Part shown: piece after piece, positions 34,491-58,975 of the stretch
How positions within the stretch are numbered: the stretch's first letter is position 1
How the letters are laid out: each line of letters starts with the position of its first letter
From: Holophagaceae bacterium
GTDB lineage: Bacteria; Acidobacteriota; Holophagae; Holophagales; Holophagaceae
Assembly (NCBI GenBank): GCA_044229575.1
Contig: JBGAST010000016.1
Location: 1,477 to 65,476 of the forward strand
Direction: 5' to 3'
Length of the DNA stretch: 64,000 nt
Translations under genes and position numbers: made by a program
Notes under the pieces: generated by a model
What the model was told of the DNA's origin: nothing
Seen by the model: the letters and a program-made list of their open reading frames with translations, nothing else
Databases searched by the model: none

Positions 34491-37400
34491 TCAGGGGGTC
34501 CGGATCTGGAACGTGGCGGTGGCCAGCGTGCCGGCCGGGTTCTGGACCGTCAGGGTGTAGGTACGGGTCGTGGCCGGCGTGGCGGGCGAGGTGACGACGA
34601 GGACGTCGCCGTTCGCCACTGTCCAGGTCGTCCCGACACCGTCGATGACCCTGCCCGTGGTGTTGCCGGTGAAGGTGAACGTCAGGGGCACCGGGGTGCT
34701 GACCGGCACCACGAAGGGGCTGGGGCCAGGGCCGGTGATCGTGGCGGTGGGCAGTTCCCAGACGATGACCGTGCGCGTGGTATCCACGGTCGCCGTGCCC
34801 TGGGTCAGCCGCAGCGTGTAGCTGTAGAGGCCGTAGGGGGGGACCACCAGGCTGACAGGTACCGCGGTACCCGTGCCCGGGCTCGTGACGCCCGGATAGA
34901 TCGTCGTCACGGTCCCGCCGTCGTCGGTCTGGAGGATGTCGGCGTTTCCGCTCGCATCCAGGTTGAACACCCAGTTCATGAAGATCGAATCCCCCACGCT
35001 GACTACGGCGGGCGAGACCGTGAAGCTGCTCGAGAAGGGCAGCGCCAGGACCGTGACCGTGGCCGTGGTGATGGCGACGGTGCCGGCGGCATTGGTGACC
35101 GCCAGGGTGTAGGTGGTGGTGACGGTGAGGGTGACGTTGTAGGAACCGCCATTCACCACGTTCCCGACGCCACTCGAGATGGTGCCGCTGCCGTTGGAGA
35201 AGGTCGGCACCAGGACGCTGGTCTGGCCGGCGTTGATGGTGGCCGGCGTGGCGACCAGGCTGGTGGCGATGGGCGCCGGGACCACGGTGACGGTCACCGT
35301 CCGGGTGGCGGTGATGGTGCCCGAAGTGACCGTGAGGGTGAACGTCGTCGTGGTCGCGAGGGCCGCGCTGCTGATGGGCACGCCCGACGTGACCGCACCC
35401 ACGCCGTTGTCGATGGAGCCGGTGGCGCCCGCGGCGAAGATCGCGAGCAGGCTCGTGGTGGACCCGGCAGTGACGACCGCGGGCGTCGCCGTGAAGCTGC
35501 TGGCCAGGGGCCCGGCCAGGACGGTGATGATGCGCTGGGCCGTGGCGATCGCCCCGGCGGCGTTAGTCACCGTCAGCTGGTACACGGTGGTGGAGATGGG
35601 GAGGACGGCGTAGGAATTACCGGTGAGCACCGTGCCCACCCCGAGGTTGATGACGCCGTTGCCGCCCGTGAAGATGGGCTGCAGGTCGGTGCTCTCGCCG
35701 GCGGTGATGGTCGTGGCGCTGGCGTTCAGGGTGGCCGTGGGCGCCGCGACCACGTCGACGGTGACGGTCTGGAGGGACGTGGTACCGGCCGCGTTGGTGA
35801 CCAGCAGGCTGTAGGTGACGGTGGTGCCGACCGCGGCTGCGGTCGGGGTGACCAGCACGGGAGTGCCCGAGGTAGGCGTGGCCGGCAGCTGGGCTCCCGT
35901 GAAGGAGTTGGCCGAGCCGGTGAGGCCGTTCACGGCGGTGCCGTTGGTGAAGAGGGCCGTCAGGTTGATGGAGTCGCCGACGGTGATGATGCGGCGGCTG
36001 GCGGTTAGGCTGATGGCGTTGGGTCCGGACACCACGGTGACGGTGGCCTGGGTGATGGCCGTGTCGCCGGCGGCGTTGGTCACCGTCAGCGTGTAGGTGG
36101 TGGTCGCGATCGGGGTGACGGGATAGCCAGCGCCTGTGATCACGATCCCGACCCCGTTGCTCACGACGCCGTTGCCGTCGGTGAAGGTGGGCGTGAGGGT
36201 CGAGGATTGGCCGGAGGTCACCAAGGCGGGAGCCGCGACCAGGCTGGTGGCGACGGGCGCCGCCACCACCACGATGGGCAGGGTGCGGGTGACCGTCTGG
36301 CCGGCAAGGTTGGTCTCGGTGAGGGTATGGGTCTGGGTGCCCACCGTTCCAGGGATGTAGGGAATGGGGGATCCGCTGGTGGGGACGATGGGGGAGGCAG
36401 GATTGCCCAAGGCATCGCCGTGGGTGATCTCATTGCCGGCGACGGCGGGGGTCGGGTTGCTGAACACCGCGGTCAGGTTGGTCACGGTGCCGACGGTCAC
36501 GGGGTTCCTGGAGGCCGTGAAGCTGGTGATGGTGACCGGCTGCACCACGATCAGGGTGCGGACCGCGGTGAGGACCTGGCCGGTGCTGTCCGTGACCCTG
36601 AGGGTGTAAGTCGTGGTGGTGCCCGGGGACACGGCATAGGCCTGGCCGCTGGTGACGGTGCCGATGACCGGGGTGATGGTGCCCACGGCATTGATGCCGC
36701 CGCCGAAGACCGGCAGCAGGTTGGCGCTTCCGCCCGCGGAGATGGTGTCGGCGGGGGCGGAGGTGGTCAGGGTCGCCGTCAAGGGAGGCACGGCATTGAC
36801 GTCCACCGCGAAGGCGGGGGCCGTGGTGCAGCTGGAGCCCGCGGCGTTCACCACGGTGCAGGTCAGGGTCAGGACGCCCACGCCCGTGGTGGTGCCAGCG
36901 GTGTAGGTGATCTGGTTCGTGCCCTGGCCGGCGGTGATGGTGCCGTTGGTGATGTTCCAGTTGTAGGTGGAGCCGACCTGGGACGGGACGGAGGCGACGT
37001 GGCCGGGGGTGCCGGCGAAGACGGCGGCCTCCCCGGTGACGGTGCAGACCGGGGGCGCCACGACCCGGATGGCCGCGGTCCCCGTGGCCGTGCCGCCGGG
37101 GCCGGTCACCACGAGGGTGTAGATGAAGGTGCCGGTGGCGACGGGGGTGACGGTGGTGGAGGTGCCGGAGGCCGGGGCCGCCGGGAGCTCGGCGCCGGAG
37201 AAGGAGCCGGCGGGGCCCGTGAGGTTGCTGGCGGTCCCGTTGATGTAGCTGGTCAGCAGCTGGCTGGTCCCGCCCAGGGTGATGACCGCAGGAACCACCG
37301 TGAAATTGGTGATGGAGGGCGGCTGCACCACGGTGATGGTCTCGGCGTCGGAGGCCGAGGTGCCCGCGCCGTTGGTGACCGTCAGGACGTAGGTGGTGGT

Positions 37401-40400
37401 GGCGATCGGGCTGAAGGTGTAGGCGAGGCCGTTGACCACGACGAAGGAGCTGCCGCCGCCGCTGAGGACGCCGACGCAGTCCGGACCGCCGGTCCAGTTC
37501 GGGGTCAGGGTGACGCTCTGGCCCACGTTGATGGAGTTGGTGGAGGCCACAAGGTCGACGGCGGTGGGGGCCGCCACGATCTTCACGAGCACGCCCGTGG
37601 TGTGGGTGACGCCCGCGCCGTTGTCGGCGGTGAGAGTGAAGATGCGGTCGCTGCTGTTCGTCCCGTCAAGCACGACGGGGAAGGGCACGCCGGTCTGGAG
37701 GGTCGGCGTGGCGCGGGGCGTGCCCGTGTCGGTGGCGACGGAGGAGGTCACGTTGGCGGAGCCGCCCACGGGGAGGGTGAAGATGGCGTTCAGGTAGATC
37801 GTGGCGCCGGCGGTGGCGACCAGGCGGTCGGACACGAGGGCCTGGGCGAAGGGTCCGGCGACCACGAAGATCGTCTGGGAAGCCGAGGCCTGCCGACCGG
37901 CGGCATTGGTGACCGTCAGGGTGTAGGTCGTGGACAGGGTTGGCGAGACCACGTAGCTCGAGCCCGACACCACGGGCCCGACGCCGTTGTTGATGGCGCC
38001 AGTGCCGTTGGTGAACACCGGGGCGAGCGTCGCGCTCTGGCCGGCGGTGATGGTGTAGGGGAAGGCGGCCGGGACGGTGACATTCAGGACCGCGGTCGGG
38101 GCCGGCACCACCGTCAGGTTCGTGGTGGTGGTGTAGGTGGTGGGCGTCGCGTTCGTGACGGCCAGGGTGTAGGTGTAGATGCCCGCGGAAACCGGTGCCG
38201 AGACGACGGACTGCGGGGTGCCGCTGGTCGGTGCGTAGGCGTTGGGCGCCAGGAAGGCGCCGCCGTTGCTCGTCACCGCGGCGGTGGTGGCGTTGCTGAA
38301 GATCGCGTAGAGCTGGGTGGTGTCGCCTTCCGTGATGATGTTCGGCTGGAAGTAGAAGGCCTGGGCGAAGGGACCCGCGAGCACCGTGACCGTGAGGCTC
38401 GCGGTGGCCGTCGTGCCGACGGGGTTGGTCACCGTCAGGACGTAGGTCGTGGTGGAGGTCGGGGAGACCGGGTAGGCCTGGCCCGAGGTGACGGTACCGA
38501 TGCCAGCGATGACGCCCGTGCCGTTGGTGAAGGTGGGGGTCAGGCTGGTGGTCTCACCGAGGGTGATGGGGTTGTTGGATCCCGCGGTGATGGCGAGGCC
38601 CGCGGTGGGGACGCCGTAGACGGTCACCGTGACGCCATGGGTGGAGGTCACGCCGGCGCTGTTGGTGACGGTGAGGGTGTAGACATAGGTCCCGACCGCC
38701 GTGGGGGTCACGGGGAAGGGCACGGCGTTCAGGGGCGCGATGGGAGCCGCGAGGCCGCTGGTGGCCGCGTTGGGGCTGGTGCAGACCACGGAGGCGGTGC
38801 CCCCGGTGCCGATGGTGAAGTAGGCGGTCAGGTAGGACGTTCCGCCCACGGTGATGCCCACCGGGTTGGCCGCCAGGGCTGCCGCATTGGGGCCGGTCAG
38901 CACGACCACGGTGTGGACCACCCCGGTGGTGGCGCCGATGGAATTGGTCACCGTCAGGGTGTAGGTGGTGGTCTGGGTGGGCTGGACCGCGTAGGCGGAA
39001 CCGCTGAGGACGCTGCCGACGCCGGGGGTGATGACGGCGGTGCCGCCGGAGAAGGTCGGGGTCAGGAAGGTGGTGTCCCCGGCCGTAATGGGGTTCACCG
39101 AGGAGGTGAGGCTCGTCGCCGTGGGCAGGCCCACCACGAGGATCGTCACCGAGCGGTTCACGGACACGAGGGCCGCGTTCGTCACCGTCAGGGTGTAGGT
39201 GGTGGTGGCGATGGGGTTCACGAAGAGGGAGACGCCGCTCGTGACCGGGACGCCGCCGGCGGGGAAGGGCGGCGAGCTGCCGCTGGGAGGCGCGGTGATG
39301 ACGCCGTTACCTCCGGAGAAGATGCCGATGAGCTGGGAGAAGTCGCCGGCGGTGATGGTGGAGGGGAAGGCGATGAAGCTCTCGATGACGGGATCGCCGA
39401 CCACGTGGACCGTTAGGATGCGGGTGACGAAGTCGCCGGCGGGGTTGGTCACCGTCAGGGTGTAAGTCGTGGTTTCAAGCGGGTTCACCGTGTAGGAGTT
39501 GCCGCTGATGACCGAGCCCACGCCGCCGATGAAGCCGCTGCCGTTGGCGAAGACCGGCAGGAGCTGGACCGGGCTGCCGCCCGCAACGGGGGGAGGCGTC
39601 GGGGGATTCGAAGTGAAGCTGGCGATGGACGGGGGCGGCACCACCGTGACGACGGTGCCCGTGGTGGCCGAGGCCCCGGCGGGATTGGTCACCGTCATCG
39701 TGTAGGTGGTGGTGACGGGAGGCGTGACCAGGTAGGGCACGCCGTTGAGCACGGCGCCGACCCCGTTGTCCACGATGGCGGTGCCGCTCGTGAACGTGCC
39801 GATGAGGCGGGAGGAGTTGCCGATGGTGATGATGGGCGGGATGGAGACCAGGCTGATGCCCGTGGGGGCTTCCACCACCTTGACCGTCGTGGAGAGCTGG
39901 ACGAAGGTGCCCGCCGCGTTGGTGACCGTCAGGAGGTAGGAGGTGGTCACGGTGGGAGAGACCCGGACTGGGATGCCGGACAGGATGGGACCGATGCCGC
40001 TGACCGCGCCGGTGCCGCCGGCGAAGACGGCCACGAGGTTGGTGCTGTTTCCGACGGTGATGGTGGCCGGCTGGCCCGCGAAGCTCGTGATCACGGGCGT
40101 CGTCACGACGTTGATGGTCGCGACCGCGCCGGAGGTGCCACCCGCGAGGTTCGTGACCGTGAGGATGTACGTCGTCGAGACCGCGGGCGAGACCGTGAGG
40201 GGAATGCCGTTCACCGGGTTCAGGGTGCTGGCGTTGACGCTGTTGGTGATGACGGCGGACCCGGACGTGAAGGTCGCGGTGAGGTGGGCGCTTTCACCCA
40301 GCGTGATGTAGGGGCGGTCGGTGGTGAGGCTCACGTTGGAGGGGAAACCCACCACCGTGACGGTGACCGCGTTGATGGCGGTGTTCCCGGAGGCGTTGGT

Positions 40401-41162
40401 CACCGTCAGGACGTAGGTGGTCGTGGAAGAAGGGCTGACCGCGGTCCCGATGCCGGAGCCGACGGGGCCGATGCCGTTGTTGATGACGCCGTTCCCGCCG
40501 GAGAAGGTGTAGTTCAGCGTGGAGCTGGCGCCCTGGGAGATCGTGGCCGGGTTGGCTGAGAAGGAAGTGATGACCGGGACGTTCTGGACCGTGATGATCA
40601 CGCCCTGGGTGACGGTGGCGCCGGCGGCGTTGGTCACGGTGAGGGTGTAGGTCGTCGTCGCCGTGGGGGAGACGAGGAAGGGGACGCCGCTGACGGGGAT
40701 GACCGTGGTGGGGCCGGCGCTGTTGGACACCACCGCCGTGCCGCCGGTGAAGGTGGCCGTCAGGGCCACGCTCTCACCGAGGGTGATGGTGGATTTCGCC
40801 GCCGTGAAGGAGACGTTCGAGATGGGGGGCACCACCGTGATGGTCAGCGCCCGGCTGGCCGTGGCGTTGACCGCGTTGGTCACCGTGAGGATGTAGGTGG
40901 TCGTCTGGGTCGGCGAGACCGCGATGGGCTGCCCGCTGGGCACCCCGCCCACGCCGGGCGTGATGGCGCCGGTCCCGTTGGCATAGACCGCCGTGAGGTT
41001 CGTGCTCGCGCCCTGGGCGATGGTGTTCAGGCTCGCGGTGAAGCTGGTGATGGACGGTTCGGGGGGTGGCGGCGGGGTGCCACCGCCTCCGCCGCCGCAG
41101 GCCACGACGAGCGCCATGAGGGCCAAAGAGAGGACGGTCAGGAACCTGGTGACGGCGCGCAT
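34491..41162 (-). CDS. Giant lipoprotein (2223 aa) made of about 26 tandem Ig-like repeats of about 85 aa
   Basis: The start is at MRAVTRFLTVLSLALMALVVAC (lipobox), followed by a GGGGGGTPPPPPEP linker. A repeating unit then ends in TTTY(T/V)LTVTN(A/P)AG. I counted about 26 such motif occurrences. Confidence 0.9.
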   Translation of the reverse strand: MRAVTRFLTVLSLALMALVVACGGGGGGTPPPPPEPSITSFTASLNTIAQGASTNLTAVYANGTGAITPGVGGVPSGQPIAVSPTQTTTYILTVTNAVNATASRALTITVVPPISNVSFTAAKSTITLGESVALTATFTGGTAVVSNSAGPTTVIPVSGVPFLVSPTATTTYTLTVTNAAGATVTQGVIITVQNVPVITSFSANPATISQGASSTLNYTFSGGNGVINNGIGPVGSGIGTAVSPSSTTTYVLTVTNASGNTAINAVTVTVVGFPSNVSLTTDRPYITLGESAHLTATFTSGSAVITNSVNASTLNPVNGIPLTVSPAVSTTYILTVTNLAGGTSGAVATINVVTTPVITSFAGQPATITVGNSTNLVAVFAGGTGAVSGIGPILSGIPVRVSPTVTTSYLLTVTNAAGTFVQLSTTVKVVEAPTGISLVSIPPIITIGNSSRLIGTFTSGTAIVDNGVGAVLNGVPYLVTPPVTTTYTMTVTNPAGASATTGTVVTVVPPPSIASFTSNPPTPPPVAGGSPVQLLPVFANGSGFIGGVGSVISGNSYTVNPLETTTYTLTVTNPAGDFVTRILTVHVVGDPVIESFIAFPSTITAGDFSQLIGIFSGGNGVITAPPSGSSPPFPAGGVPVTSGVSLFVNPIATTTYTLTVTNAALVSVNRSVTILVVGLPTATSLTSSVNPITAGDTTFLTPTFSGGTAVITPGVGSVLSGSAYAVQPTQTTTYTLTVTNSIGATTGVVHTVVVLTGPNAAALAANPVGITVGGTSYLTAYFTIGTGGTASVVCTSPNAATSGLAAPIAPLNAVPFPVTPTAVGTYVYTLTVTNSAGVTSTHGVTVTVYGVPTAGLAITAGSNNPITLGETTSLTPTFTNGTGVIAGIGTVTSGQAYPVSPTSTTTYVLTVTNPVGTTATASLTVTVLAGPFAQAFYFQPNIITEGDTTQLYAIFSNATTAAVTSNGGAFLAPNAYAPTSGTPQSVVSAPVSAGIYTYTLAVTNATPTTYTTTTNLTVVPAPTAVLNVTVPAAFPYTITAGQSATLAPVFTNGTGAINNGVGPVVSGSSYVVSPTLSTTYTLTVTNAAGRQASASQTIFVVAGPFAQALVSDRLVATAGATIYLNAIFTLPVGGSANVTSSVATDTGTPRATPTLQTGVPFPVVLDGTNSSDRIFTLTADNGAGVTHTTGVLVKIVAAPTAVDLVASTNSINVGQSVTLTPNWTGGPDCVGVLSGGGSSFVVVNGLAYTFSPIATTTYVLTVTNGAGTSASDAETITVVQPPSITNFTVVPAVITLGGTSQLLTSYINGTASNLTGPAGSFSGAELPAAPASGTSTTVTPVATGTFIYTLVVTGPGGTATGTAAIRVVAPPVCTVTGEAAVFAGTPGHVASVPSQVGSTYNWNITNGTITAGQGTNQITYTAGTTTGVGVLTLTCTVVNAAGSSCTTAPAFAVDVNAVPPLTATLTTSAPADTISAGGSANLLPVFGGGINAVGTITPVIGTVTSGQAYAVSPGTTTTYTLRVTDSTGQVLTAVRTLIVVQPVTITSFTASRNPVTVGTVTNLTAVFSNPTPAVAGNEITHGDALGNPASPIVPTSGSPIPYIPGTVGTQTHTLTETNLAGQTVTRTLPIVVVAAPVATSLVAAPALVTSGQSSTLTPTFTDGNGVVSNGVGIVITGAGYPVTPIATTTYTLTVTNAAGDTAITQATVTVVSGPNAISLTASRRIITVGDSINLTALFTNGTAVNGLTGSANSFTGAQLPATPTSGTPVLVTPTAAAVGTTVTYSLLVTNAAGTTSLQTVTVDVVAAPTATLNASATTITAGESTDLQPIFTGGNGVINLGVGTVLTGNSYAVLPISTTVYQLTVTNAAGAIATAQRIITVLAGPLASSFTATPAVVTAGSTTSLLAIFAAGATGSIDNGVGAVTSGVPISSAALATTTTFTLTVTSGTITATRTVTVTVVPAPIATSLVATPATINAGQTSVLVPTFSNGSGTISSGVGNVVNGGSYNVTLTVTTTYTLAVTNAAGTVAITTATVTVLALPFSSSFTVSPAVVSVGDSIFMNWVFNLDASGNADILQTDDGGTVTTIYPGVTSPGTGTAVPVSLVVPPYGLYSYTLRLTQGTATVDTTRTVIVWELPTATITGPGPSPFVVPVSTPVPLTFTFTGNTTGRVIDGVGTTWTVANGDVLVVTSPATPATTRTYTLTVQNPAGTLATATFQIRTP

Positions 41163-52779: not shown

Positions 52780-53085
52780 ACTGGTGCGGTGAAGCCAGAC
52801 CTGGTTTCACCTTCTTCAAGGAGAAGATCCAAGGCGGGGGAAACTGTTCCATCCCTCCTGCCGGAAGCGCGAAGGGGGCCTCCCCAACGCAGGGCCACGA
52901 GAATCGGCCACGGAAGTCCACCAAAGGAAAAAAACAGAAAGGTCCTTGACCCTGGCCGTGGCCTGTCTGGATTCTAGACAAACTCATCCTATTGCCTATT
53001 TTTTTCTAGGGAGGTTCCGCATGCACAAGCGATTCCGGGTCATGCTGGCCGCGCCGCTGGGGCGGTTCGCGAGCGGAGGCACCCC
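52780..53085 (+). promoter_or_regulatory. Lower-GC upstream region of the porin-cytochrome operon (promoter/leader)
   Basis: Contains a hairpin GGTGAAGCCA-gacc-TGGTTTCACC (about 52789-52812) and an A-run GGAAAAAAACAGAAAGG. It also contains TTGACC, TCTAGACAAACTCATCCTATTGCCTATTTTTTTCTAGG, and a 22-codon uORF with its own GGGAGG. Confidence 0.45.
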
Positions 53086-54474
53086 ATGAAACTGAGCACC
53101 CAAGCGCTCCTGATCGCCGCGCTGGCGTCCACCCCGGGCTGGTCCCAGGACTTCAGCCTGTACAGCACCACCATCGCCCAGATGTGGAAGCAGGATGCGC
53201 CGGGCTTCGACAAGGCCACCTTCGCCCCGGCTACCCAGTTCCTCGGCCTCGATGTCACCAACGTGGGCCGGGACGGCCTGTCCCTCCACCTCTTCGGCTG
53301 GGGCCGGGCCGATCTGGCCGACCAGTCCCTGCCGGAAAGCAAGACCACCGGCGAGCTGACCTACGGCTACGTCCGCTACCGCTTCCAGCAGGCCAACGCC
53401 GAGATCAAGGCCGGCCGCTTCACCGTCAACCAGGGCGTGGCCATCGAACAGGTGGACGGCGTCAGCGCCCAGGCCGACCTCCGCGGCGGCTTCACGATCT
53501 CCGCCTTCGGCGGCCGGCCGGTCCTCTACAAGACCCGGGACGCCGTGACCCAGAAGGACTACGACTTCCAGCGGGACTTCATCTTCGGCACGCGTTTGGG
53601 GCTGAGGATTCCGAAATACGGCGAAGTGGGCCTCTCCTACCTCCAGGACGGGACCAAGGCCGCCAAGGACCTGCCGATCCCGTCGGCCATCGACTACACC
53701 CGGGAGCAGCTGGGCCTGGACATCCACTTGACCCCGCACGCCGCCTTCGACTTCAGCGGCCGGACGGTCTTCGACCTGGCCGACCGCGCCCCGGCACCGG
53801 GCAGCAACGCGGAAAAGCCTTCCAAGATCGCCGAGCACGACTACAGCGCGACGGTGAAAGTGGCCTCGTCGGTCGCGATCTCCGGCACCTTCACCGAGCG
53901 CAACTTCCAGGCCTTCTTCGCCGGCACCAACCTGCCTTCCCTCTTCCGTTCCGTGGAGAAGGACAAGCACCGCGCCTACGGCGGCAGCGTGACCGTCGGA
54001 TCCGGCGGCCCCCTGGAGTTCGTCGCCGACTACCGGCACACCTCCCGCGAGACCTTCGGCGATTCCAACCGCTTCGGCGGGGATGTCCGCTGGACCCTCG
54101 AGAAGCAGAAAATCCAGTCCGGTTTCGGCTACCACCGGGTGACGGCCTCCGATGCGAAGCTGGTGGATTCCGCCACGCCCTCCTACAGCCTGGCGCACCA
54201 CGAAGTGCGGGCCTGGGTCATGGCCGAGAAAGGCAAGCTGACCGCGACCCTGGACGGCGTCCTCCATTCGTACGACGACAAGAAGAACCCCTTCCTCAAC
54301 GGCCGGACCTCCATCTTCGAAATCGTGGGTTCGCTGGGCATGCAGGCCTCGTCGAACCTCCGGATCTCCGGCGACCTCAGCTACGCCGCCAACGCCCTCT
54401 TCAAGAAAGAGGTGCGCGGGCTCCTGCGGGCTGAATACCGGTTCGTCTCGGCGAAAAAGGGAGGCGGCAAATGA
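53086..54474 (+). CDS. Outer-membrane beta-barrel (porin-like) protein, first gene of the multiheme cytochrome operon
   Basis: The signal peptide is MKLSTQALLIAALASTPGWSQ. There are many amphipathic alternating beta-strand segments (GELTYGYVRYRF, GFTISAFGG, FIFGTRLGLRI, EVRAWVMAE, LLRAEYRF). A GGAGG lies upstream of the start. Confidence 0.75.
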   Translation: MKLSTQALLIAALASTPGWSQDFSLYSTTIAQMWKQDAPGFDKATFAPATQFLGLDVTNVGRDGLSLHLFGWGRADLADQSLPESKTTGELTYGYVRYRFQQANAEIKAGRFTVNQGVAIEQVDGVSAQADLRGGFTISAFGGRPVLYKTRDAVTQKDYDFQRDFIFGTRLGLRIPKYGEVGLSYLQDGTKAAKDLPIPSAIDYTREQLGLDIHLTPHAAFDFSGRTVFDLADRAPAPGSNAEKPSKIAEHDYSATVKVASSVAISGTFTERNFQAFFAGTNLPSLFRSVEKDKHRAYGGSVTVGSGGPLEFVADYRHTSRETFGDSNRFGGDVRWTLEKQKIQSGFGYHRVTASDAKLVDSATPSYSLAHHEVRAWVMAEKGKLTATLDGVLHSYDDKKNPFLNGRTSIFEIVGSLGMQASSNLRISGDLSYAANALFKKEVRGLLRAEYRFVSAKKGGGK

Positions 54475-54944
54475 CGCGCAGCAAGGTATTCCTCTCGTCC
54501 GTCCTCGCCCTCTTCCTGGGCGTCCTCACCGCCTGCTCCGTCCTTTCCCCGGAGACGAGCTTCGCGCCGACCCATCCGGAAGCCCTGGGCCAGGGCCGGC
54601 CGGTCTGCTCCAGCTGCCACGGGGACGAGGCCATGAAGGGCGGCCTCAAGACCTACGCGGCCCTGGACCATACGCCGGGCTTCGTGAAGAACCATCGCTA
54701 CCAGGCGAACCAGGACTCGAGCACCTGCGCCTCCTGCCATAGCCAGTCCTTCTGCTCGGACTGCCACGGCGGGAAGGTGCCCATGACCCCCGCCACGAAG
54801 TGGGGCAACCGCCCCGACCGCGACATGCCGCACCGCCCGGGCTACCTCTCCATCCACCGCATGGACGGAAAGCTCGACCCCGCGGGCTGCTTCAAGTGCC
54901 ACGGCCGCGCCAACAACGACAAATGCACGGCTTGTCACCGCTAA
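54471..54944 (+). CDS. Pentaheme c-type cytochrome lipoprotein (157 aa)
   Basis: The lipobox is LGVLTAC. Five CXXCH motifs are present (CSSCH, CASCH, CSDCH, CFKCH, CTACH). The start overlaps the barrel gene stop (ATGA). Confidence 0.9.
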   Translation: MTRSKVFLSSVLALFLGVLTACSVLSPETSFAPTHPEALGQGRPVCSSCHGDEAMKGGLKTYAALDHTPGFVKNHRYQANQDSSTCASCHSQSFCSDCHGGKVPMTPATKWGNRPDRDMPHRPGYLSIHRMDGKLDPAGCFKCHGRANNDKCTACHR

Positions 54945-54954
54945 GGGGCCGCAC

Positions 54955-55593
54955 ATGCGCATAGACACGATCACGATTCGCAGTGCCGCTTCGATGTTCA
55001 AGGCCGTGTGTGCGGTCGCCTTCGCCCTGCTCCTCGGGGGCTGCTCGACCAGCAACACCCAGTCCACCCAGCTCAGCCCCAAGGGCGAACACCCGGCTGG
55101 CTGGCTGCAGACCCACTACGCGGAATTCATCAAGAACCCGGACCAGTGCCGGACCTGCCACGGCTCCACCACGGATCCCAAAGCGGCCGGCGGCATCGCC
55201 AACGTCAGCTGCTTCTCCTGCCATCCCCACGGCCCGAGCCATGCCCCCGGCTGGGAGGCCCCCGGCCAGCACGGCCGCCTCGGCGCCCAGGCGGCCCCCG
55301 GCGTGACCGCCGGCTTCGCCTACTGCGCGAAGTGCCACGGTTCCACCTACAACAACGGGCCCGCCGTCTCCTGCATGACCTGCCACACCAAGTCGCCGCA
55401 CCCGAGCCGTCCCTGGGTGGGCACGTCCGCCTCCGCGCCCAGCCACACCATGACCGACGCGGCCAACGCGCCTGAATGCGTCAAGTGCCACGCCGACGGC
55501 GCCAACTCGACCCTGAAGCCGACGACGCCGGCGCCGCCGGGGACGATCCCGGGCTGCTTCAACAACACCATGTGCCACGGCCGGAGCTTCTGA
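54955..55593 (+). CDS. Multiheme c-type cytochrome lipoprotein (212 aa) with 5 canonical CXXCH motifs plus one C-X5-CH
   Basis: The lipobox is ALLLGGC. The CXXCH motifs are CRTCH, CFSCH, CAKCH, CMTCH and CVKCH, and the C-terminus carries CFNNTMCH. Confidence 0.9.
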   Translation: MRIDTITIRSAASMFKAVCAVAFALLLGGCSTSNTQSTQLSPKGEHPAGWLQTHYAEFIKNPDQCRTCHGSTTDPKAAGGIANVSCFSCHPHGPSHAPGWEAPGQHGRLGAQAAPGVTAGFAYCAKCHGSTYNNGPAVSCMTCHTKSPHPSRPWVGTSASAPSHTMTDAANAPECVKCHADGANSTLKPTTPAPPGTIPGCFNNTMCHGRSF

Positions 55594-55643
55594 TGCGCGA
55601 ATCCCAAGAATCCCCAAACAAACCAACCATAGGAGGACAACGT

Positions 55644-58388
55644 ATGCATCGCAAACCTCTGAAGGTGCTCTGCGGGTTGGTTGCAACCGCCGCTGCCGCC
55701 TTCCTGCTGATCAGCTGCCGGGGCTCCGCAGGCCAGACCGGACCGGCCGGCGCGAACGGGACCAACGGTACCAACGGAAGCAACGGGTCCAACGGCGCGA
55801 CCTATGCCATCGACGCCACCACCCTCTCTCCCGAGGAATGGGGAGAGCTCAGCCTGAAGGGCACGGTCACCAGCGTGAGCGCCGGCGCCTCCACGGTCGT
55901 GAACTTCAAGGTGACGGAAGGCCACAATGTCCCGGTCAAGGGGCTCGGCTTCACGTCCAAGGCCTCCACCGCCGCCTTCGCCGGCTACGCGAACATGGCC
56001 TTTTCCATCGCCAAGCTCGTGCCCGGGACCAGCGGCAGCCCGAGCACCTGGGTCAACTACATCGTGACCGGGAACCCCACCGCCGCGGCCCCGACGACCT
56101 GGGTTCCGGGCCGTCCGAGCACCGACAACATCGGCACCCTGGTGGACAACGGCGACGGCACCTACAAGTACACCTTCCGCCGGGACATCACCCAGACCCA
56201 GGCCCTGCTGGACGCCTATACCTACACCGGCAACAACATCAAGGCCGACCTCGGTGACGTCAGCTACCAGTCCAACTTGACCCACCGGGTCACGGTCTAC
56301 GTTGGCGGCAATGCCCGCGGCACCAGCACCAACACCGCCGACGGCTCCAACAGCGGCGTCCCGGCCATCCGCGTCAAGTTCCCCGCGAACTTCTTCTACG
56401 ACTTCATCCCCGCCACCGGCCAGCCCGTGGGCGCCGCCAACGAGCAGCGCGAGATCACCCAGGTCTCCACCTGCTTCACCTGCCACGCCAAGTTCGAGTT
56501 CCATGGTGAAGGCCGCCAGGACACCAAGTACTGCGTCGTGTGCCACACCGACCAGCGCAAGTACGGGAATCCGGAAGCCACCACCACGCCGACGGGCTAT
56601 GACATCGTGGCCGGGCAGCGGAAGATCCAGAACCACGCCGTAGGCGACTTCGTCAACCTGGTCCACCGCACCCACATGGGCGAAGAACTGAAGAAGGATG
56701 GCTACCAGTACGCCGGCGTGTACTTCAACCACGTCACCTACCCCCAGGACCACCGGAACTGCGTGAAGTGCCACACGGCCAGCACCAGCACCCCCCAGGG
56801 CGACAACTGGTTCAACAAGCCCAGCCGCTTCGCCTGCGGCGCCTGCCACGACCAGGTCAAATGGGAGACCGGTGAGCACCATGCCGGCGGCCCGGCCTTC
56901 GCCGACAACCAGTGCGCCCAGTGCCACGACGCCGCGGCCATCAAGACCTACCACATCCCCGTCCTGCCCCCGAACCCGCTGAACGCGTGGAACGTGGCAT
57001 CCGGCGGCAACAACAACACCAACGCCTCCTACGTGGCGGCCTTCGCCAACAACCTGCCCCCCGGCGCCAGCAAGGTGACCTGGGACCTCAAGAGCTTCAC
57101 CTTCAACAGCAGCGGCAAGCCCGTCGTCACCTTCCGCTTCATCAAGGACGGCGCGCCGGTGGTCTTCAACACCTACCCCGCCAAGCCCGAGATGATGGAC
57201 AACTTCGTGGGCGGCCCGAGCATCTACATCGCCTTCACCGTGCCCTACGACGGGATCCAGTACCCCGCTGACTGGAACGCCACCATCAGCACCTACCTCA
57301 AGAACATCTGGCGCGGGGACGGCAAGGACGCCAACGGCGGAAACCTGCAGGCCGCCGCAAAGGCGACACTGACGGGTCCTGACGGCAGCGGCTACTACGC
57401 CCTGACCTTCACCGACGCCATCATCCCCCCCACCGCGGGCATGCTCAATGCCGGCATCGGCTTCACCTACGGTCTCAGCGCCACCCAGCCCCTGACCCAG
57501 ACCAACGTCCCGGGCTACCCGTACACCCCCCGCGTCCCCAACACGCCGGGCACCGGCCAGGGCGGGCTCGCGGTTCCGGCTCCCAACGTCACCAAGATGG
57601 TCAGTGGCACTCTGCCCGCCGGCTTCGACACGGCCCAGGCGACGACGCCCCGCCGCACTATGGTCACCACCGCGAAATGCAATGATTGCCACGGCGCCCT
57701 GGGCGTCTTCACCGCCAAGACCTACCACGCCGGCCAGCGCAACGACGCCCAGGCCTGCGAGTTCTGCCACAACGGCCAGCGGGTCAACAGCGGCTGGGGC
57801 GTCAACACCAAGGACTTCGTCCACGCCATCCATGGCGCGGGCAAGCGCGTCAACAAGTACTCGTGGGAAGCCTCCGCGGGGTTCAAGTACTGGACCATCA
57901 CCTACCCGAGCGTGCTGAACAACTGCGAAGCCTGCCACGTGCCCGGCTCCTACGACTTCGGCAACACCACCAACGCCGGCGAAGTGCCCAACCTGAACTG
58001 GACCACCGTCGCCACCGGCACGGTGCCGAATCCCGTGAATGTCGTCATCACGGGCAACGAGCCCATTCCGGGAACCTACTGGTCCCCCTTCGTCACCGCC
58101 GGCGCGGTCTACGGCAGCGGCTTCTCCTATAGCGCGAACACCGGCGTTTCCACGCCGGCGGCGCCCACCACCCTGGTGAGTTCCCCCTATGTCGCGGCCT
58201 GCTCCAACTGCCACGACACGCCCATGGCCCTCAACCACATGAAGGCCAACGGCGGCTCCTTCTACGTGCCCCGCAGCAGCGTCATGAACGCCCAGACCGG
58301 CGCCCTCATCAACGCGGAGCAGTGTTTCCTCTGCCACTCCGCCGGCAAGATCGCGGATACGCAGAAGGTGCACATGAACTTCAAGTAA
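55644..58388 (+). CDS. Decaheme c-type cytochrome lipoprotein, OmcA/MtrC-like (914 aa)
   Basis: AGGAGG lies upstream of ATG 55644 and the lipobox is AFLLISC. By hand count, ten CXXCH motifs start at residues about 277, 297, 373, 398, 424 and 679, 705, 761, 853, 894. That gives two pentaheme blocks, each preceded by a roughly 250-aa heme-free domain. Confidence 0.9.
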   Translation: MHRKPLKVLCGLVATAAAAFLLISCRGSAGQTGPAGANGTNGTNGSNGSNGATYAIDATTLSPEEWGELSLKGTVTSVSAGASTVVNFKVTEGHNVPVKGLGFTSKASTAAFAGYANMAFSIAKLVPGTSGSPSTWVNYIVTGNPTAAAPTTWVPGRPSTDNIGTLVDNGDGTYKYTFRRDITQTQALLDAYTYTGNNIKADLGDVSYQSNLTHRVTVYVGGNARGTSTNTADGSNSGVPAIRVKFPANFFYDFIPATGQPVGAANEQREITQVSTCFTCHAKFEFHGEGRQDTKYCVVCHTDQRKYGNPEATTTPTGYDIVAGQRKIQNHAVGDFVNLVHRTHMGEELKKDGYQYAGVYFNHVTYPQDHRNCVKCHTASTSTPQGDNWFNKPSRFACGACHDQVKWETGEHHAGGPAFADNQCAQCHDAAAIKTYHIPVLPPNPLNAWNVASGGNNNTNASYVAAFANNLPPGASKVTWDLKSFTFNSSGKPVVTFRFIKDGAPVVFNTYPAKPEMMDNFVGGPSIYIAFTVPYDGIQYPADWNATISTYLKNIWRGDGKDANGGNLQAAAKATLTGPDGSGYYALTFTDAIIPPTAGMLNAGIGFTYGLSATQPLTQTNVPGYPYTPRVPNTPGTGQGGLAVPAPNVTKMVSGTLPAGFDTAQATTPRRTMVTTAKCNDCHGALGVFTAKTYHAGQRNDAQACEFCHNGQRVNSGWGVNTKDFVHAIHGAGKRVNKYSWEASAGFKYWTITYPSVLNNCEACHVPGSYDFGNTTNAGEVPNLNWTTVATGTVPNPVNVVITGNEPIPGTYWSPFVTAGAVYGSGFSYSANTGVSTPAAPTTLVSSPYVAACSNCHDTPMALNHMKANGGSFYVPRSSVMNAQTGALINAEQCFLCHSAGKIADTQKVHMNFK

Positions 58389-58441: not shown

Positions 58442-58474
58442 CGAAGAACCCGGGCCCCCTGCCCGGGTTCTTCG
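58442..58474 (+). terminator. Hairpin terminating the cytochrome operon
   Basis: The hairpin is CGAAGAACCCGGG-ccccctg-CCCGGGTTCTTCG, about 55 nt after the decaheme gene stop. The T-tract is weak. Confidence 0.55.
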
Positions 58475-58564: not shown

Positions 58565-58975
58565 ATGAACCACGGCGTTCTCAAGCCCATCCTCGTGGCC
58601 ATGGCCCTGCTCTGCACGGGCCCGGCCTGGAGCCAGGACACGAAGAAGAAGGCCGCGCCCCCGGCCGCCCCGGCCCCCAGCGCGACGGACCTGAATCCCC
58701 TGATCGCTGCCCAGTCCAAGGCCCGCTCCAAGGCCCTCAAGGCCGAGAAGAAGAAGCAGAAGACGATTCCCGAGGCCCAGCGGGTGGATATCAACAGCGC
58801 CACCAAGGAGGAGCTGATCAAGCTGCCGGGGGTCAGTGAAGCCTATGCGGCGAAGATCATCGCCGGCCGCCCGTACCTCACGAAGATCCACCTCGTGACC
58901 CACGATGTCCTGCCCTACGCGGTGTACACGTCCATCAAGGGGCGCATCATCGCCCGGCAGAAGGGCGTGAAGTAG
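58565..58975 (+). CDS. ComEA-like helix-hairpin-helix DNA-binding protein, secreted
   Basis: A signal peptide, a Lys/Ala/Pro-rich linker and the HhH motif VDINSATKEELIKLPGVSEAYAAKIIAGRPY are present. Confidence 0.8.
   Translation: MNHGVLKPILVAMALLCTGPAWSQDTKKKAAPPAAPAPSATDLNPLIAAQSKARSKALKAEKKKQKTIPEAQRVDINSATKEELIKLPGVSEAYAAKIIAGRPYLTKIHLVTHDVLPYAVYTSIKGRIIARQKGVK

Follow-up and report, generated by a model that had tools for sequence, protein, structure and literature searches.

A Gly-X-Y tether in fixed register behind the lipidated cysteine of a large OmcA/MtrC-family decaheme cytochrome from Holophagaceae

The locus described here lies in a 64,000-nucleotide stretch of a Holophagaceae bacterium genome (assembly GCA_044229575.1, contig JBGAST010000016.1, positions 1,477 to 65,476 of the forward strand), referred to below as the window, and encodes an OmcA/MtrC-family decaheme c-type cytochrome lipoprotein (positions 55644..58388; 914 amino acids plus stop in the open reading frame translation), hereafter the decaheme, with an unbroken run of Gly-X-Y (G-X-Y) triplets directly behind its lipid anchor. 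All features of the locus are on the plus strand. A ribosome-binding site (GGAGGA, 55632..55637) sits 6 nucleotides upstream of the ATG at 55644, which we take to be the right start because the resulting N-terminus (MHRKPLKV...) agrees with the starts of the closest homologues. A longer open reading frame from the ATG at 55476 (970 amino acids) was rejected, as it overlaps the upstream gene and carries no signal peptide, and the homologues start at the methionine equivalent to 55644. The gene opens with a lipoprotein signal peptide, MHRKPLKVLCGLVATAAAAFLLIS, that ends in a lipobox (L-I-S-C) with the lipidated Cys25 (55644..55718), a residue that is invariant in a 70-sequence alignment.

Following Cys25 and Arg26, the tether spans residues 27-53 (55722..55802) as nine unbroken triplets that read GSA GQT GPA GAN GTN GTN GSN GSN GAT. 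The first-pass annotation of this DNA, made from the letters alone, had counted seven triplets at 55731-55796; these form the real core of the run, but the full count is nine, since the skipped residues RGSA are already in register. The X and Y positions are of Thr/Ser/Asn type, with one Pro among the 18 and no charged residue. Not one of 100,000 shuffles of the 30-residue linker reached nine triplets, and a six-frame scan of the 3.85-Mb, 69.4% GC genome found a single further run of at least eight triplets (51 triplets, on another contig), so chance at this composition does not explain the run. Against the Pfam Collagen model (PF01391), the decaheme scored 18.5 bits as a protein and 22.1 bits in the genome scan, both below the cut-off of 27.2, and membership of the collagen family was rejected on this gathering threshold. 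A search of the PDB with the N-terminus alone was uninformative, returning only engineered Gly-Ser/Gly-Thr linkers and collagen peptides (E > 0.1). In the AlphaFold2 single-chain model, residues 13-52 have a predicted local distance difference test (pLDDT) score below 50, and the tether is thus predicted to be disordered.

The genome's one genuine collagen-like protein is encoded elsewhere, on contig C74 (about 56486-56945, plus strand), by a 454-codon open frame whose 51 unbroken triplets are of GAT/GPT/GPI type and which scores above the Pfam Collagen cut-off. Poly-Gly linkers, by contrast, are frequent in this genome: behind the lipidated Cys of many predicted lipoproteins lie 5-11 such residues, often with Thr/Pro next, as in a 2223-amino-acid immunoglobulin-repeat lipoprotein in the window (34491-41162, minus strand; CGGGGGGTPPPPPEP) and ten other genes genome-wide. 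A rough regular-expression census of 68 candidate lipoproteins likewise found that their Gly-rich linkers are poly-Gly, with a long G-X-Y run in the decaheme only.

At the DNA level, Tandem Repeats Finder reports a degenerate 9-bp tandem repeat within the tether (55755..55795; AAC GGN ACC/AGC/TCC, AACGGGACC repeated 4.6 times with 81% matches), in which the five Gly codons (GGG, GGT, GGA, GGG and GGC) comprise four synonyms. Because the repeat is degenerate, the Gly codons are mixed and 9, 9 and 10 triplets are found in the closest relatives (at 93%, 81% and 82% identity), the array looks old and stable rather than actively slipping. The first-pass annotation had asked whether the tether varies in length by slippage: triplet number does range from 5 to 13 across homologues, but it is nearly constant in these closest relatives. 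Residues 36-51 (55749-55796) consist of N-G-T and N-G-S units, which are at once repeated N-X-S/T sequons and Asn-Gly dipeptides, the dipeptide most prone to spontaneous deamidation; these units could act as glycosylation sequons or as deamidation-prone sites, and the proteobacterial homologues do not have them.

We surveyed the tether in 107 members of the large subfamily to which the decaheme belongs (described below), all with a lipobox and an intact N-terminus. At least seven unbroken triplets directly follow the Cys in 92 of these proteins (range 5-13), and 11 have Gly/Thr/Pro-rich linkers with no Gly period. Glycine occurs at +2, +5, +8 and onwards to +23 from the Cys in 61-96% of sequences (96% at +2), compared with 3-24% at other positions, and the register counted from the Cys is identical in 78 of 96 runs. 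Where the tether alignment has gaps, these are mostly whole triplets. The X and Y residues, in contrast to the Gly period, differ wholly between clades: the Holophagae type has Thr (36%), Ala (23%) or Ser (10%) at X and Asn (52%) at Y, whereas the proteobacterial type has Pro at X (50%) and Ala, Thr or Pro at Y. Linker length, taken as the alignment columns from the Cys to the invariant Phe88 in a 70-sequence subset, had a median of 65 residues in the 11 members without a clean G-X-Y run, whose linkers are mostly Pro/Thr/Gly-rich, and of 62 residues in the 59 members with one.

The Shewanella reference proteins carry a shorter version of the same feature. MtrF (SACGGSDGDDGSPGEPGKPP), MtrC of S. 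baltica (TGCGGSDGNDGNPGEPGGEP), MtrC of S. oneidensis (TGCGGSDGNNGNDGSDGGEP) and OmcA (GSDGKDGEDGKPGVVGV) have 4-5 triplets, with Gly at +2, +5, +8, +11 and +14 from the Cys. As these triplets stand in the same register, the tether is, on the proteins compared, an old trait of much of the OmcA/MtrC family that has been expanded about two-fold here, and it is not peculiar to this protein. The first-pass suggestion of a genuine tether does stand, since close and distant orthologues alike keep the G-X-Y stretch. A stronger statement, that the tether is universal in the family, was rejected because the second MtrC paralogue of Burkholderiales, of about 750 amino acids, has poly-Gly/Pro-Thr linkers. 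Literature searches that paired collagen with these cytochromes, or MtrC with its lipobox and linker, found no paper on the tether (several hits were to the unrelated Neisseria MtrC or "mtRC"), in agreement with the first-pass remark that it had not been described for the family, and the Cell 2020 paper on MtrCAB is silent on the MtrC N-terminus.

The assignment of the protein itself is secure. It scores 432.7 bits against TIGR03507 (cut-off 209.3), with residues 82-910 aligned to profile positions 6-672 of 672, and is the sole TIGR03507 gene in the genome; PF22113, which covers domains II and IV of MtrC/MtrF, matches two stretches (4.3e-45). Ten CXXCH motifs fall in two blocks of five (residues 277, 297, 373, 398 and 424; 679, 705, 761, 853 and 894), each preceded by about 250 heme-free residues, so that the reading frame, the LLISC lipobox, the heme positions and their two-block layout had all been read correctly at first pass. 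Ten conserved histidines outside the motifs (H287, H341, H344, H413, H437, H695, H727, H730, H865 and H910) are candidate distal heme ligands; H413 is outside both the invariant and the at-least-90% lists of the alignment, and aligns with His289 of MtrF. Sequence searches of the PDB with the decaheme matched MtrF, MtrC, OmcA and UndA. An AlphaFold2 model built from 70 homologues, in which the hemes are absent, has a mean pLDDT of 86.5 and a predicted template modelling score of 0.79, and OmcA, MtrC and MtrF make up all 15 of its best PDB matches by Foldseek (E 9e-14 to 2e-28). For full-length chains, E values run from 2e-28 to 5e-20, with template modelling scores by target length of 0.56-0.69; identity in these structural alignments to the Shewanella cytochromes is only 15-18%.

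On this evidence, the decaheme is a clear member of the OmcA/MtrC family with its four-domain fold, as proposed at first pass, and both the profile and the structural comparison are significant. Beta-rich domain I (about residues 54-265; 55803..56438) is followed by pentaheme domain II (CXXCH 277 to 424; 56439..56963), beta-rich domain III (about residues 441-665, with no Cys; 56964..57638) and pentaheme domain IV (CXXCH 679 to 894; 57639..58385), the limits of domains I and III being taken from AlphaFold2 secondary structure. The hemes would probably adopt the staggered-cross arrangement.

The decaheme exceeds MtrF by about 275 amino acids, and each of the four domains has an insertion, according to residue numbers read from printed pairwise alignments. 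From the Cys to heme 1 there are 252 residues compared with 170 in MtrF (+82, about 12 in the tether and about 70 in domain I), from heme 2 to heme 3 there are 76 compared with 35 (+41, in domain II), from heme 5 to heme 6, across domain III, there are 255 compared with 175 (+80), and from heme 8 to heme 9 there are 92 compared with 40 (+52, in domain IV); all remaining intervals are within +7. The first-pass annotation had placed the enlargement in the non-heme domains. Domains I and III do hold about 55% of the extra residues, but the heme 2-3 and heme 8-9 insertions lie in the pentaheme domains. The first-pass figure of about 650-750 amino acids for the family was too narrow: the UndA chain in the PDB has 874 residues, so large OmcA/MtrC-family members were already known, and the UndA domain I aligns across the whole of domain I of the decaheme.

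Hundreds of homologues of 860-1000 amino acids are likewise annotated. A protein search with the decaheme gave 799 matches, and the best 120 of these, mostly 860-1010 amino acids long, come from Holophagaceae/Geothrix, from Burkholderiales (Rubrivivax, Aquincola, Ramlibacter), and from metagenome-assembled genomes labelled Steroidobacteraceae, Myxococcaceae and others; many already carry the name "OmcA/MtrC family decaheme c-type cytochrome". Of the named relatives, the closest are in metagenome-assembled genomes of Holophagaceae (74% identity) and in Geothrix species (50-69%). The decaheme is, then, an ordinary member of a large and already annotated subfamily of 860-1000 amino acids in Holophagaceae/Geothrix and Burkholderiales. 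By itself the gene offers little new biology, being a further annotated OmcA/MtrC-family decaheme from an iron-reducing lineage (Holophagaceae/Geothrix). The sequence comparisons contribute three points about the tether: it keeps a fixed register relative to the Cys, the Shewanella reference proteins have it too, and Pro/Thr linkers can take the place of the triplets with length preserved.

Upstream of the decaheme gene lie an outer-membrane beta-barrel protein gene (53086..54474; 462 amino acids, about 22 strands in the AlphaFold2 model) and two small cytochrome lipoprotein genes, the first of 157 amino acids with five CXXCH motifs (54471..54944), whose start overlaps the barrel gene by 4 nucleotides, and the second of up to 212 amino acids with five CXXCH motifs and a C-terminal CX5CH (54955..55593). 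Together with the decaheme, the two small cytochromes would bring the total to 20-21 hemes. The barrel has no Pfam or NCBIfam match; Foldseek relates it to porins, TonB-receptor barrels, ushers and MtrB, and it is restricted to Holophagaceae/Geothrix. A sigma-70-like promoter match (TAGACA, 16 nucleotides, TATTTT; 52975-53002) lies about 85 nucleotides upstream of the barrel gene and is the sole plus-strand match in 6.4 kb, where two were found in all, one per strand at the same place, compared with 0.2 in shuffles.

Directly downstream of the decaheme gene is a gene for a secreted helix-hairpin-helix (HhH) protein (58565..58975; 136 amino acids, HHH_3, ComEA/PsbU-like). Between the two, 54 nucleotides after the decaheme stop codon, is a perfect 14-nucleotide inverted repeat with a 5-nucleotide loop (58442..58474). 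This hairpin has no following T-run and is not a canonical intrinsic terminator, and a consensus terminator scan called no terminator 3' of the decaheme gene; it is possibly a transcript end or a stabiliser. An HhH homologue lies 3' of the large decaheme gene in most of the Holophagaceae and Burkholderiales loci examined (for example L004:10762-11064), and the HhH proteins of the window and of Aquincola are 61% identical, compared with about 45% for the cytochrome itself. Baker et al. (2022, mBio, PMC8805035) recorded the HhH gene next to mtrC of "Group 4-type" in Aquincola and Niveibacterium.

About 25 Holophagaceae/Geothrix loci share the order barrel, cytochrome, cytochrome, decaheme, HhH, whereas the Burkholderiales order is (cymA-like), decaheme, HhH, (second mtrC), mtrA, mtrB. 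Three Geothrix genomes (G. alkalitolerans, G. campi and G. fermentans DSM 14018; loci L006, L007 and L008) have a decaheme copy of 67-69% identity with no barrel, small-cytochrome or HhH genes within 5 kb. In G. alkalitolerans a second decaheme copy adjoins a full module (locus L026), whereas the source genome has a single copy.

Although mtrA and mtrB are readily found beside the Burkholderiales homologues, the source genome, which is 99% complete, contains neither by profile search. Its best match to MtrA (TIGR03508) reached 25 bits against a cut-off of 192, and MtrB/PioB (TIGR03509/PF11854) had no match, a weaker negative because the TIGR03509 search also matched none of 14 control genomes. 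In Holophagaceae an MtrC-type protein occurs without MtrA/MtrB and beside a different barrel and two pentaheme lipoproteins. An "mtrF" homologue is expressed in Holophaga and Geothrix metagenome-assembled genomes according to a metatranscriptome (PMC11748539). Homology and gene order suggest a conduit for extracellular electron transfer with the decaheme as its terminal reductase. Electrons leaving the periplasm would travel along the small cytochromes inside the barrel, reach the decaheme and go on to Fe(III) minerals or humic substances.

For the tether, the reading that we favour, and consider fairly probable, is that the nine triplets form a length-conserved, extended and flexible monomeric spacer by which the terminal reductase of the conduit is lipid-anchored at the surface. 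We base this on the predicted disorder of the segment, on the linkers that keep their length without G-X-Y, and on its composition, with a single Pro, no charge and a Pfam Collagen score below the cut-off. It also draws on the partners of related proteins, since many Burkholderiales homologues adjoin mtrA/mtrB, and Shewanella MtrC binds MtrAB 1:1, as does a soluble MtrC without the lipid site, which forms an indistinguishable complex (PMC8415449). The main role of the anchor, in the view of those authors, is to keep MtrC at the surface. Further support comes from outer-membrane lipoproteins at large, in which disordered N-terminal linkers are common and important for sorting; about half of those of Escherichia coli have one, according to a preprint (10.1101/2021.01.05.425367). 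The tether would leash a large folded cytochrome to the membrane while leaving it free to reach and sit on the conduit, and its 27-29 residues would span about 8 nm if fully stretched (at about 0.3 nm per residue). The Gly period would be an inherited and selected family trait, its register fixed from the Cys, and the conserved function would lie in the length and extended character of the spacer rather than in a collagen triple helix.

Several points weigh against the spacer. It is not obvious why a plain flexible linker should require Gly at precisely each third residue, and the retention of a strict period from Shewanella to Acidobacteriota hints at a structural role, such as polyproline-II packing on a partner or a triple helix. 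The 1:1:1 stoichiometry of Shewanella would carry over by analogy only, as this genome is without MtrA/MtrB, and the surface localisation, heme loading and electron path proposed for the decaheme derive from homology and gene order.

Two of the alternatives appear unlikely to us to about the same extent. According to the first, slippage of the 9-bp repeat created the tether and changes its size; the linker would be of low complexity and selectively neutral, with a period that is a by-product of the repeat unit. This would account for the tandem array at 55755-55795, for the spread of triplet number in homologues with mostly whole-triplet gaps, and for X/Y residues that are repetitive inside each lineage (GTN, GPA, GAT, GAP), but the array is degenerate with mixed Gly codons, which marks it as old and not actively slipping, and the 9, 9 and 10 triplets of the closest relatives are not hypervariable. 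The non-repetitive Shewanella tethers (GSD GKD GED GKP GVV), moreover, keep the period without any DNA repeat, the register from the Cys is fixed in most runs, and the other Gly-rich lipoprotein linkers in the rough census of this genome are poly-Gly.

The second holds that the post-Cys segment acts as a signal for sorting or export, which the lipoprotein transport machinery or a type II secretion system would recognise in bringing the cytochrome to the outer face of the outer membrane. The fixed register relative to the lipidated Cys, the near-constant Gly at +2 and a CGGSDG start common to Shewanella and proteobacterial homologues all fit such a signal, as does the importance of N-terminal disordered linkers for E. 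coli lipoprotein sorting (same preprint, 10.1101/2021.01.05.425367), and a GspD-family type II secretin is encoded on another contig (369.5 bits against a cut-off of 351.35). However, Shewanella still secretes soluble forms of MtrF and OmcA from which the lipobox region is missing (residues 1-22 and 1-32; PMC6929479), the Gly period is wholly absent in 10% of relatives, and the +1 residue is variable (G, R, N, K, D).

We regard as very improbable that the post-Cys Gly-X-Y of the family (4-5 triplets in Shewanella, 7-13 in the subfamily) forms a lipid-nucleated collagen-like triple helix or other polyproline-II bundle. In its collagen form, three lipidated chains would make a short rigid stalk that raises a decaheme trimer (30 hemes) about 8 nm, which would suit a strict Gly period in register from the Cys across phyla, the truly collagen-like GPAGPQGPTGPPGPP runs of up to 13 triplets in proteobacterial homologues, and two homologues that reach the Pfam Collagen model in precomputed annotation. 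N-terminal lipid tails are also known to stabilise short collagen-model peptides. Against this, the decaheme tether is Pro-poor and rich in Thr/Ser/Asn, a G-X-Y composition of low triple-helix propensity, it has nine triplets only and sub-threshold Collagen scores (18.5-22 bits), 11 of the 107 relatives carry equally long Pro/Thr linkers without G-X-Y instead, no adjacent trimerisation domain is evident in the AlphaFold2 model, and the 4-5 triplets of Shewanella are too short, in a genus whose MtrC works as a 1:1 partner of MtrAB. Oligomerisation and mineral binding, which the first-pass annotation had suggested, are the less likely roles for a tether of this Thr/Ser/Asn type.

The monomeric spacer thus remains our preferred reading, and what is at stake is how the segment behind the anchor should be viewed. 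Work on the OmcA/MtrC family usually regards it as a featureless linker or cuts it off for crystallography, and yet a strict three-residue Gly period from the Cys, for which we found no paper, is common to the Shewanella model proteins and distant phyla and is expanded here. If the period is structural, it bears on the spacing, orientation and packing of cytochromes at the cell surface; if it is not, the tether is a family-specific flavour of lipoprotein linker. Were the triple helix or polyproline-II bundle to be true after all, these surface cytochromes would be stalked trimers, changing models of electron transfer and surface packing.

Among known systems, the decaheme shares with Shewanella MtrC, MtrF, OmcA and UndA (PDB 4lm8, 6qyc, 6r2q, 3pmq, 4lmh and 3ucp) the TIGR03507 profile, the five-plus-five CXXCH layout, the four-domain fold and a lipoprotein signal. 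A domain-III CX8-15C disulfide is conserved in all Shewanella clades, where it is redox-linked and gates flavin binding (PMC4486940), whereas the decaheme has no Cys beyond its CXXCH motifs after residue 25, so this disulfide is absent; 65 of 70 subfamily members likewise have no Cys outside the heme motifs. Its domain I is similarly large to that of UndA, and the tether of MtrC, MtrF and OmcA has the same register with 4-5 triplets in place of nine. Shewanella also has mtrA/mtrB partners, and the genome of the decaheme has neither.

With bacterial collagen-like proteins (PF01391), such as streptococcal Scl1/Scl2 and Bacillus BclA, the decaheme has unbroken Gly-X-Y in common, but it differs from them in having nine triplets only, almost no Pro, no charged pairs and no recognisable trimerisation domain. 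The "Group 4-type" MtrC of Burkholderiales (PMC8805035) belongs to the same large subfamily (41-46% identity, 860-960 amino acids), with the same post-Cys tether and the downstream HhH gene. Its tether is Pro-rich, whereas that of the decaheme is Thr/Ser/Asn-rich, and it adjoins mtrA and mtrB, often with a cymA-like gene, while the Holophagaceae decaheme follows the unrelated 462-amino-acid barrel and the two pentaheme lipoproteins. With the disordered N-terminal linkers of Gram-negative outer-membrane lipoproteins (preprint 10.1101/2021.01.05.425367) the decaheme shares a disordered stretch, about 30 residues long, that separates its lipidated Cys from the first folded domain, and the length of this stretch is kept even where the chemistry changes. 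Such generic linkers, unlike the decaheme tether, have no strict three-residue Gly period.

In gene layout the locus resembles the Ext conduits of Geobacter: in both, a single operon has a barrel gene with genes for small multiheme lipoproteins behind it. Geobacter ExtABCD and ExtEFG are porin-cytochrome conduits with small lipoprotein cytochromes. Homologues of Ext-type conduits are reported as expressed in Holophaga and Geothrix metagenome-assembled genomes (PMC11748539). At the present locus, the predicted outermost component is an OmcA/MtrC-family decaheme rather than a Geobacter-type cytochrome.

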